From the NCBI RefSeq assembly GCF_016903815.1, contig NZ_CP069973.1: 64,000 bases of DNA; one strand, given 5' to 3'. Shown here one piece after another: positions 50,769 through 53,795 of the stretch; position 1 is the first letter of the stretch; the number at the start of each line of letters is the position of its first letter. The position numbers and the translations under genes were made by a program. The notes under the pieces were generated by a model. That model did no database searches. It saw nothing but the letters and a program-made list of their open reading frames with translations, and was not told the origin of the DNA. This DNA is from Escherichia coli (GTDB lineage: Bacteria > Pseudomonadota > Gammaproteobacteria > Enterobacterales > Enterobacteriaceae).

Positions 50769-50971
50769 GAAAACACTCCTGCGGAGGCAAAATCGAATTT
50801 GCCTATTATGTCAGAAAAACGCCACAGACTGTATGCCACCTCGGGCGTAGCGCTGGCTCCTGCCTTTACATGCCATATCCATCTTTCTATATTCAAAAAT
50901 TGAATGAGTAATTCATAAAAATTCTGATATTTATAGCAAAAGTGGCGAGCCACCCTTAATGGATGAATACT

Positions 50972-51937
50972 ATGGGCAAAGCAGTCATTGCAATTCATGG
51001 CGGCGCAGGTGCAATTAGCCGCGCGCAGATGAGTCTGCAACAGGAATTACGCTACATCGAGGCGCTGTCTGCCATTGTTGAAACCGGGCAGAAAATGCTG
51101 GAAGCGGGCGAAAGTGCGCTGGATGTGGTGACGGAAGCGGTGCGTCTGCTGGAAGAGTGTCCACTGTTTAACGCCGGAATTGGCGCTGTCTTTACGCGTG
51201 ATGAAACCCATGAACTGGACGCCTGTGTGATGGATGGTAACACCCTGAAAGCCGGTGCGGTGGCGGGCGTTAGTCATCTGCGTAATCCGGTTCTTGCCGC
51301 CCGGCTGGTGATGGAGCAAAGCCCGCATGTGATGATGATTGGCGAAGGGGCAGAAAATTTTGCGTTTGCTCATGGCATGGAGCGCGTCTCACCGGAGATT
51401 TTCTCCACGCCTTTGCGTTATGAACAACTAATGGCAGCGCGTGAGGAAGGGGCAACAGTCCTCGACCATAGCGGTGCGCAACTGGATGAAAAACAGAAAA
51501 TGGGCACCGTGGGGGCCGTGGCGTTGGATTTAGACGGCAATCTGGCGGCAGCCACGTCCACGGGCGGAATGACCAATAAATTACCCGGACGAGTTGGCGA
51601 TAGTCCCTTAGTGGGTGCCGGATGCTACGCCAATAACGCCAGTGTGGCGGTTTCTTGTACCGGCACGGGCGAAGTCTTCATCCGCGCGCTGGCGGCATAT
51701 GACATCGCCGCGTTAATGGATTACGGCGGATTAAGTCTCGCGGAAGCCTGCGAGCGGGTAGTAATGGAAAAACTCCCTGCGCTTGGCGGTAGCGGTGGCT
51801 TAATCGCTATCGACCATGAAGGGAATGTCGCGCTACCGTTTAACACCGAAGGAATGTATCGCGCCTGGGGCTACGCAGGCGATACGCCAACCACCGGTAT
51901 CTACCGTGAAAAAGGGGACACCGTTGCCACACAGTGA
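50972..51937 (+). CDS. iaaA: isoaspartyl peptidase / L-asparaginase IaaA (Ntn hydrolase)
   Basis: ORF 50963..51937; start placed at [13 protein letters not shown] (321 aa); Thr nucleophile region GTVGAVALD. Confidence 0.92.
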
Positions 51938-53795
51938 TGAACTTGATGCCGGTGATGTGCTGGCGGTTGAAAATCTGAATATTGCCTTTATGCAGGACCA
52001 GCAGAAAATAGCTGTGGTCCGCAATCTCTCTTTTAGCCTGCAACGCGGTGAGACGCTGGCAATTGTTGGCGAATCCGGCTCTGGTAAGTCAGTGACTGCG
52101 CTGGCATTGATGCGCTTGTTGGAACAGGCGGGCGGTTTAGTGCAGTGCGATCAAATGCTGTTGCGGCGGCGCAGTCGTGAAGTGATTGAACTTAGCGAGC
52201 AGAGCGCTGCACAAATGCGCCATGTGCGCGGTGCGGATATGGCGATGATATTTCAGGAGCCGATGACATCGCTGAACCCGGTATTTACTGTGGGTGAACA
52301 GATTGCTGAATCTATTCGTCTGCATCAAAACGCCAGTCGTGAAGAAGCAATGGTCGAGGCGAAGCGGATGCTGGATCAGGTACGCATTCCGGAGGCACAA
52401 ACCATCCTTTCACGTTATCCGCATCAACTCTCTGGCGGGATGCGCCAGCGAGTGATGATTGCGATGGCGCTGTCATGCCACCCGGCGGTGCTGATTGCCG
52501 ATGAGCCAACCACCGCGCTGGATGTCACTATTCAGGCGCAGATCCTGCAATTAATCAAAGTATTGCAAAAAGAGATGTCGATGGGCGTTATCTTTATCAC
52601 TCACGATATGGGCGTGGTGGCAGAGATTGCCGATCGGGTACTGGTGATGTATCAGGGCGAGGCGGTGGAAACGGGTAGCGTCGAACAGATTTTTCATGCA
52701 CCGCAACATCCTTACACCCGTGCGCTGTTAGCTGCTGTTCCGCAACTTGGTGCGATGAAAGGGTTAGATTATCCCCGACGTTTCCCATTGATATCGCTTG
52801 AACATCCAGCGAAACAGGAACCACCCATCGAGCAGAAAACGGTGGTGGATGGCGAACCTGTTTTACGGGTGCGTAATCTGGTCACCCGTTTCCCTTTGCG
52901 CAGCGGTTTGTTGAATCGCGTAACGCGGGAAGTGCATGCCGTTGAGAAAGTCAGTTTTGATCTCTGGCCTGGCGAAACGCTATCGCTGGTGGGCGAGTCT
53001 GGCAGCGGTAAATCCACTACCGGGCGGGCGTTGCTGCGCCTGGTCGAATCGCAGGGCGGCGAAATTATCTTTAACGGTCAGCGAATCGATACCTTGTCAC
53101 CCGGCAAACTTCAGGCATTGCGCCGGGATATTCAGTTTATTTTTCAGGACCCTTACGCTTCGCTGGACCCACGTCAGACCATCGGTGATTCGATTATCGA
53201 ACCGCTGCGCGTACACGGTTTATTGACAGGTAAAGAAGCGGCTGCACGCGTTGCGTGGTTGCTGGAGCGCGTGGGCCTGTTACCTGAACATGCCTGGCGT
53301 TACCCGCATGAGTTTTCCGGCGGTCAGCGCCAGCGCATCTGCATTGCTCGCGCGTTGGCATTGAATCCAAAAGTGATCATTGCCGACGAAGCCGTTTCGG
53401 CGCTGGATGTTTCTATTCGCGGGCAGATTATCAACTTGTTGCTCGATCTCCAGCGTGATTTCGGCATTGCGTATCTGTTTATCTCCCACGATATGGCCGT
53501 GGTAGAGCGGATTAGTCATCGTGTGGCGGTGATGTATCTCGGACAAATTGTTGAAATTGGTCCACGGCGCGCGGTCTTCGAAAACCCGCAGCATCTTTAT
53601 ACGCGTAAATTACTGGCGGCAGTTCCGGTCGCTGAACCGTCCCGACAACGACCGCAGCGTGTACTGCTGTCGGACGATCTTCCCAGCAATATTCATCTGC
53701 GTGGCGAAGAGGTGGCAGCCGTCTCGTTGCAATGCGTCGGGCCGGGGCATTACGTCGCACAACCACAATCAGAATACGCATTCATGCGTAGATAA
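51924..53795 (+). CDS. gsiA: glutathione ABC importer ATP-binding protein GsiA (two nucleotide-binding domains)
   Basis: ORF 51816..53795; start placed at the TTG giving (M)PHSDELDAG… (623 aa), overlapping the iaaA 3' end; two Walker A motifs (GESGSGKS twice). Confidence 0.85.

Follow-up and report, generated by a model that had tools for sequence, protein, structure and literature searches.

The iaaA–gsiA junction

The window analysed here, a stretch of 64,000 nt from the Escherichia coli contig NZ_CP069973.1, carries iaaA followed on the same strand by gsiA (all positions are those of the window). The gsiA start codon and its Shine-Dalgarno sequence are both contained in the 26 nt at the 3' end of iaaA, and the two coding sequences overlap. 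The features to which we refer are listed below in order of position.

50865–50893, + strand: promoter-like site TTTACA-17-TATATT upstream of iaaA, a pattern match from a consensus scan only
50972–51937, + strand: iaaA coding sequence, beta-aspartyl/isoaspartyl peptidase of 321 aa (RefSeq, NF007589)
51816–51923, + strand: upstream extension of the gsiA frame, 108 nt, an open frame which is not gsiA coding sequence
51880–51969, + strand: predicted long hairpin around the gsiA Shine-Dalgarno sequence and start (minimum free energy −39.1 kcal/mol), weak and predicted in Escherichia only
51911–51913, + strand: iaaA codon AAA (Lys), at the site of the iaaA stop codon TAA in most other genera
51912–51917, + strand: Shine-Dalgarno sequence AAGGGG of gsiA, within iaaA, 6 nt 5' of the TTG and following an A-run
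51924–51926, + strand: TTG start codon of gsiA (RefSeq CDS start, MG1655 annotation and codon homology across genera)
51924–51937, + strand: iaaA/gsiA overlap (TTGCCACACAGTGA), 14 nt by direct reading of the sequence
51924–53795, + strand: gsiA coding sequence, fused double ABC ATPase of 623 aa (NF007613, RefSeq WP_021523050.1)

The longest open reading frame in the gsiA frame given by the window ORF list runs from an ATG at 51816 to 53795 on the + strand (659 codons) and overlaps iaaA, as had been noted in the initial annotation, with the iaaA stop codon read from the sequence as TGA at 51935–51937. The TTG at 51924–51926 is in frame with this 659-aa ORF and is followed by CCA CAC AGT GAT GAA CTT GAT (PHSDELD), and the protein counted from it is 623 aa long. 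The same annotation had put this codon 14 nt before the iaaA stop, a figure which holds as the length of the overlap but not as the distance from the first base of the TTG to that of the stop codon, which is 11 nt. Other in-frame codons of the start type are found upstream (ATG 51816, ATG 51825 and GTG 51906) and downstream (GTG 51957 and ATG 51990, the latter being the first downstream ATG).

The identity of both genes is well established by family models. The long ORF scored 1367.7 bits against the NCBIfam GsiA equivalog model NF007613 (cutoff 1077), with model positions 1–623 aligned to residues 37–659 and residues 1–36 left uncovered, and this end-to-end alignment together with the sequence itself bears out the 623-aa GsiA beginning (M)PHSDELD that the initial annotation gave for the locus. 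Family models and PDB matches recognise tandem ABC nucleotide-binding domains, with the N-terminal half of the DppD/OppD type and the C-terminal half of the DppF/OppF type; our search for solved structures found none of GsiA itself and only those of the homologues Rv1281c, DppD/F and OppD/F. The protein encoded here presumably acts in the ATP-dependent import of glutathione, by analogy with published genetics and biochemistry from E. coli and Salmonella (PMC5485302). The gene order iaaA, gsiA, gsiB is given by the RefSeq features of a genome with an identical junction, and gsiB is also present in the window ORF list. IaaA scored 709.6 bits against NF007589 (cutoff 567), the model aligning to residues 4–324 of the longest ORF. 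This ORF starts at ATG 50963 (MNTMGKAV...), ATG 50972 (MGKAV...) is the start in RefSeq and in the family model, and a published IaaA N-terminal peptide (TRAINSPOTTER) favours ATG 50972 over 50963, which makes the iaaA start a second spot in the operon where ORF length misleads.

The junction is highly conserved within the species. A 701-nt junction query had matches of 95–100% identity, with features named iaaA and gsiA, in 5425 of 5426 complete E. coli genomes, the allele in the window being 98.3% identical to K-12-like genomes and 100% identical to strain 7/2, and the central 51 nt (51900–51950) are identical in 5132 of the 5426 genomes, another 290 having one or two base changes. We opened three RefSeq records (one 100% identical over the 701 nt, one K-12-like and a third in which gsiA is disrupted), and all three place the gsiA start at the equivalent of 51924 and iaaA at the equivalent of 50972–51937. 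The K-12 iaaA–gsiABCD locus (gsiA b0829, UniProtKB P75796, 623 aa; iaaA b0828, UniProtKB P37595, 321 aa) has the same start, overlap and protein lengths and shows no substantial difference from the window. The comparison with reference gsiA starts proposed in the initial annotation therefore returns the same TTG in K-12 and in the three RefSeq genomes. Both the TTG start and the overlap of 14 nt already belong to the standard RefSeq and K-12 annotation and are hence a known feature, and the earlier description of the start as a minor annotation point is correct: it is ordinary and carries little weight beyond annotation hygiene.

Two further observations concern variation in gsiA within E. coli. 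Residue 11 of GsiA (51954–51956) is Asp (GAT) in the window and in strain 7/2 and Asn (AAT) in K-12 and K-12-like genomes. In the record with the disrupted gene (NZ_CM172609.1, 3325–5419), from an extra-intestinal pathogenic (ExPEC) E. coli from mussels, gsiA consists of a 510-aa CDS and a partial pseudogene, a split that points to either a frameshift or an error in assembly.

Evidence for TTG 51924 as the gsiA start codon

We compared the junction across a set of orthologues from 80 Enterobacterales loci, one per species. Picking the start automatically by Shine-Dalgarno energy, the codon homologous to TTG 51924 was GTG, ATG or TTG in at least 50 of the 80 species, with 20, 18 and 12 species, respectively. 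The automatic pick went wrong in a few loci, and junctions were then read by eye, which added TTG at the homologous codon in two such loci (L009 and L031) beyond the twelve. TTG is used by Escherichia, Citrobacter, Raoultella, K. oxytoca and Trabulsiella, GTG by Enterobacter, Kosakonia, Phytobacter, Pluralibacter and K. pneumoniae, and ATG by Leclercia, Buttiauxella and Cedecea. Among the loci with an indel-free N-terminal alignment no other Leu or Val codon was found at this position, which was always ATG, GTG or TTG, and in the loci without NTG there the N-terminal length differs. Such interchange of ATG, GTG and TTG at a homologous codon is what an initiation codon would be expected to show. 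An in-frame stop codon 18 nt 5' of the start makes the homologous codon the first possible start in Enterobacter and several other genera. The motif PHS(D/E)EL directly after the start codon is conserved in the genus-level junction alignment, and in Escherichia and Citrobacter the changes within residues 2–8 (PHSDELD) are confined to synonymous third positions.

Patterns of nucleotide variation across 12 Escherichia and Citrobacter loci mark the same boundary. The 108-nt extension contains 36 variable sites, of which 29 are at iaaA third positions and hence gsiA-frame second positions, and the same iaaA-frame pattern is shown by 58 of 69 variable sites farther upstream in iaaA. The 14-nt overlap is unchanged in all 12 loci, and 3' of it the periodicity turns to the gsiA frame with 85 of 143 variable sites at third positions. 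The Shine-Dalgarno duplex with the 3' end of 16S rRNA predicted for TTG 51924 has an energy of −7.8 kcal/mol and a 6-nt spacer, whereas every alternative in-frame start has −3.0 kcal/mol or weaker, and other genera have AAGGAG, TAAGGAG or AGGAG in the same position. The gene has two marks of UUG-initiated genes, namely orthologues with AUG or GUG at the same codon and a Shine-Dalgarno sequence 5–9 nt upstream. Structure homology with DppD/OppD starts at residues 9–13 of the 623-aa GsiA, and the long form would therefore add 36 unmatched residues to the N-terminus.

Each of the alternative in-frame codons can be weighed against this evidence. A start at ATG 51816 or 51825 would produce a GsiA of 659 or 656 aa with an N-terminal extension of 33–36 residues, and ATG 51816 does offer an ATG and the longest ORF. 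However, the extension varies purely as iaaA coding sequence, lies outside the GsiA family model, and is interrupted by in-frame stops in many genera (at −60 in Enterobacter and others); ATG 51816 is absent from E. albertii and one Citrobacter-like locus, ATG 51825 is absent from several E. coli and Citrobacter loci, and neither codon has a Shine-Dalgarno sequence (−1.5 and −2.9 kcal/mol). A collection of 15 billion proteins had no exact copy of a 659-aa or 656-aa GsiA and contained the exact 623-aa protein on at least 1000 contigs. We exclude these two ATGs, whose use would be close to inconceivable. GTG 51906, located 18 nt 5' of the TTG and giving a protein of 629 aa, could be proposed as the start of the main or of a minor isoform, as it is in frame, occurs in the window and in K-12, and was called as the start in two old GenBank records (ESA75475.1 and ESD39780.1), which are the only source of the 629-aa form in the same collection. 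It is very unlikely to be used, since Citrobacter has GGG and E. albertii and other E. coli strains have GCG at this codon, its duplex is poor (−3.0 kcal/mol), and no alternative gsiA start was reported by INRI-seq, in which initiation is arrested by retapamulin in vitro on a pool of synthetic fragments covering −30 to +120 (PMC9825163), even though the gsiA oligo includes GTG 51906 (the MG1655 annotation used in that work starts gsiA at 867520 in the same sequence, and the oligo consists of 30 nt upstream followed by TTGCCACAC). Starts downstream, at GTG 51957 or ATG 51990, would leave the TTG-proximal codons untranslated, and although both are in-frame codons of the start type, they are very unlikely and to us a shade less credible still: PHSDELD is kept as amino acids in Escherichia and Citrobacter and the PHS motif is kept across genera, both codons are missing in several Citrobacter and Escherichia loci, their duplex energies are −3.0 and +0.4 kcal/mol, respectively, and a start at 51990 would remove the first beta-strand region aligning to DppD/OppD.

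Annotation, comparative genomics and Shine-Dalgarno strength all agree with the original placing of the gsiA start at a TTG within the 3' end of iaaA, and the comparative evidence gives the annotated TTG firm backing. The accompanying warning that the gene is easily mis-called from ORF length is true mostly in theory, as the protein collection has neither the 659-aa nor the 656-aa form, though the two records starting at GTG 51906 do exist. These records name the protein ‘putative phosphonate C-P lyase system protein PhnK’, and both the name and the start are outdated.

Origin of the overlap

The arrangement of the junction differs between genera. In most, iaaA ends ...GIYRE followed by TAA, and the gsiA Shine-Dalgarno sequence (TAAGGGGG or TAAGGAG) begins with this stop codon, with gsiA starting 9–13 nt later. 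The junction alignment reads ...CGTGAA-TAA-GGGGG in Enterobacter, Leclercia, Kosakonia, Klebsiella, Raoultella and others, and ...GAA-AAA-GGGGA/GGAGA in Escherichia and Citrobacter (the C. freundii group). The junctions of Enterobacter, Klebsiella, Leclercia and Salmonella resemble that of E. coli in having a homologous start, the Shine-Dalgarno sequence in the same position and the same GsiA N-terminus (PHS...), but differ in that the iaaA stop is the TAA of TAAGGRG with the gsiA start 9–13 nt on, the genes do not overlap, IaaA is shorter by 8 residues, and the gsiA start is usually GTG or ATG. The TAA state is also seen in a Salmonella LT2 deletion primer, which has GGGAATAAGGAGCCGCAG immediately upstream of gsiA (PMC5485302). 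Two other arrangements are found, with TGATG or TAATG (−1) in Buttiauxella-like genera and ATGA (−4) in Erwinia-like genera.

In the window, the AAA codon at 51911–51913 takes iaaA on for a further 8 codons (KGDTVATQ) to the TGA within gsiA codons 4–5 (AGT GAT). By parsimony, the 14-nt overlap appears to derive from the loss of the iaaA stop codon through a single T-to-A change (TAA to AAA) in the Escherichia/Citrobacter lineage, this direction being our reading of the alignment, and the overlap would then be a lineage-specific result of stop-codon loss, which is the commonest route to overlapping genes (Huber et al., PMC10666635). The change may have occurred more than once or been moved by recombination, since AAA is found in Citrobacter and Escherichia and TAA is retained in Salmonella.

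The corresponding C-terminal tail of IaaA, KGD(T/S/A)VATQ, is found in Escherichia and the C. freundii group (loci L004–L012) and is missing in most other genera (L013–L083). One locus labelled C. freundii (L052), with a GsiA that is only 74% identical, has a different IaaA extension with the same TGA end.

Probable translational coupling of iaaA and gsiA

We consider it likely that the junction is best explained as a whole by initiation of gsiA at UUG 51924 driven by ribosomes arriving from iaaA, with the overlap having arisen by stop-codon loss. Within this explanation, translational coupling of gsiA to iaaA is a plausible cause which we infer from published initiation and protein-level data together with the comparison of junctions. 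We take the two genes to be co-transcribed, and ribosomes finishing iaaA would drive initiation at the UUG by either of two routes: they might re-initiate a short distance upstream of the iaaA stop while held by the Shine-Dalgarno sequence, or they might keep the gsiA start region unfolded. Both routes would yield approximately one GsiA per IaaA despite a weak start codon and a poor stand-alone site. A consensus scan found no promoter-like site in the 3' part of iaaA and no convincing terminator between iaaA and gsiA, and as the genes overlap there is no intergenic space, which fits two co-directional genes on one transcript. The distance between the iaaA stop and the gsiA start is −14 to +19 nt in nearly all species with iaaA upstream, and this conserved tight spacing suggests that linked translation may be a long-standing trait of the junction.

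Published data on initiation are consistent with a start that works poorly in isolation. By INRI-seq none of the 5 replicates had any signal at the gsiA start (0 CPM), even with the transcript abundant in the pool at 151 CPM (PMC9825163 Tables S2–S4), a zero which is suggestive but weak, given that the method found ~70% of annotated starts and missed ~30%, iaaA included; the gsiB, gsiC and gsiD starts were all detected (PMC9825163). In vivo Ribo-RET at the gsiA start, given in the tables of the same paper, was also 0. Among the rows listed in the TRAINSPOTTER tables iaaA is present and gsiA was not found, and there is no gsiA entry in the Salmonella riboproteogenomics supplements or in the acid-stress Ribo-seq paper. 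As an observation on iaaA itself, INRI-seq placed a putative alternative start at +15 (MG1655 866582), an in-frame ATT seen in 3 replicates with a top peak of 10.8 CPM (PMC9825163 Table S3).

Protein levels were taken from absolute proteome data for K-12 (Mori et al., PMC8144880 Dataset EV9, 24 samples). Both proteins are scarce in absolute terms, with mass fractions of ~1.0e-4 for GsiA and ~5.5e-5 for IaaA (PMC8144880), and with masses of 69.2 and 33.4 kDa, respectively, these correspond to a GsiA/IaaA molar ratio with a median of 0.88 (range 0.65–0.98, r = 0.85 over the 24 K-12 samples). GsiB is ~2.7-fold above GsiA in the same proteome. An isolated site that is silent and protein produced at near 1:1 match the prediction of translational coupling and do not match that of ‘low-level’ initiation relative to iaaA, and in this respect the suggestion of coupled, low-level initiation made in the initial annotation has to be divided: coupling is plausible, and a low level relative to iaaA is not supported, the median ratio being 0.88. 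Taken together, stand-alone silence in vitro and near-equimolar protein in vivo hint at genuine coupling, although equimolar steady-state levels could also come from two independent weak initiation sites.

The main competing explanation keeps the TTG start but has free 30S subunits binding the Shine-Dalgarno sequence de novo, with the overlap a neutral by-product of stop-codon loss that plays no part in coupling. It draws on a decent Shine-Dalgarno sequence (−7.8 kcal/mol) preceded by an A-rich tract and a start region with an unpaired probability of ~0.5, and on experience with overlapping genes elsewhere, where stop-codon loss typically leads to longer overlaps without coupling and spacings of +9 to +12 nt, the ancestral layout here, may initiate independently (Huber et al., PMC10666635). 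The overlap length also has a bearing on the question, as efficient termination–reinitiation is associated with spacings of −8 to +10 nt and coupling in synthetic constructs drops steadily as the overlap grows from −4 to −25 nt (PMC10666635, PMC12548453), so that −14 nt falls outside the efficient range and is compatible with partial coupling. [quoted passage not shown] A stronger form of coupling, in which the gsiA start would be essentially non-functional alone and GsiA wholly dependent on backward re-initiation at the UUG after termination of iaaA, in the −14 geometry produced by a single TAA-to-AAA loss, is a tentative proposal to which we give slightly more credence than to independent initiation, while still doubting it. 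If it were true, the −14 overlap and the +10 spacing of Salmonella and Enterobacter would constitute a natural matched pair for the effect of overlap length on coupling in a native operon.

We favour translational coupling in its general form, and it can be set beside systems in which coupling is established. Like trpB–trpA, hyfH–hyfI and menD–menH, the iaaA–gsiA pair is co-directional, would share one transcript, has the downstream Shine-Dalgarno sequence within the upstream gene and the stop and start codons within one ribosome footprint, and has an output near 1:1. It differs from them in its −14 overlap, compared with the common −4, −1 and −8, and in its UUG start, and its coupling is putative. 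We know of no complex in which IaaA and GsiA are both subunits, unlike the classic coupled pairs. [quoted passage not shown] If coupling is true, it would match synthesis of the glutathione-importer ATPase to that of the peptidase encoded by iaaA, and the gene pair would offer a handy native test case at a longer than usual overlap.

RNA structure, frameshifting and the opposite strand

The hairpin predicted at 51880–51969 was considered as a conserved structure masking the gsiA start and rejected. Its z-score is marginal (z = −1.87, with 9 of 200 shuffled sequences folding as well), the start region has an ordinary unpaired probability, like that of the gsiB and iaaA sites, and no such fold was predicted for other genera, Citrobacter included. 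No Rfam family reached the gathering score in a scan of the window as a whole.

The A-run G AAA AAG at 51908–51914 has the look of a dnaX-type slippery heptamer and doubles as the A-rich tract and part of the Shine-Dalgarno sequence. An IaaA–GsiA fusion produced by frameshifting was rejected, as the heptamer is in the gsiA register and not that of iaaA, and other genera have a gsiA-frame stop just upstream. On the minus strand, 51936–51919 across the junction resembles a terminator, with a stem and T-run (CACTGTGTGGCAACGGTG and TCCCCTTTTT). This is probably a chance occurrence, with 7 such sites found and 4.1 ± 2.6 expected.
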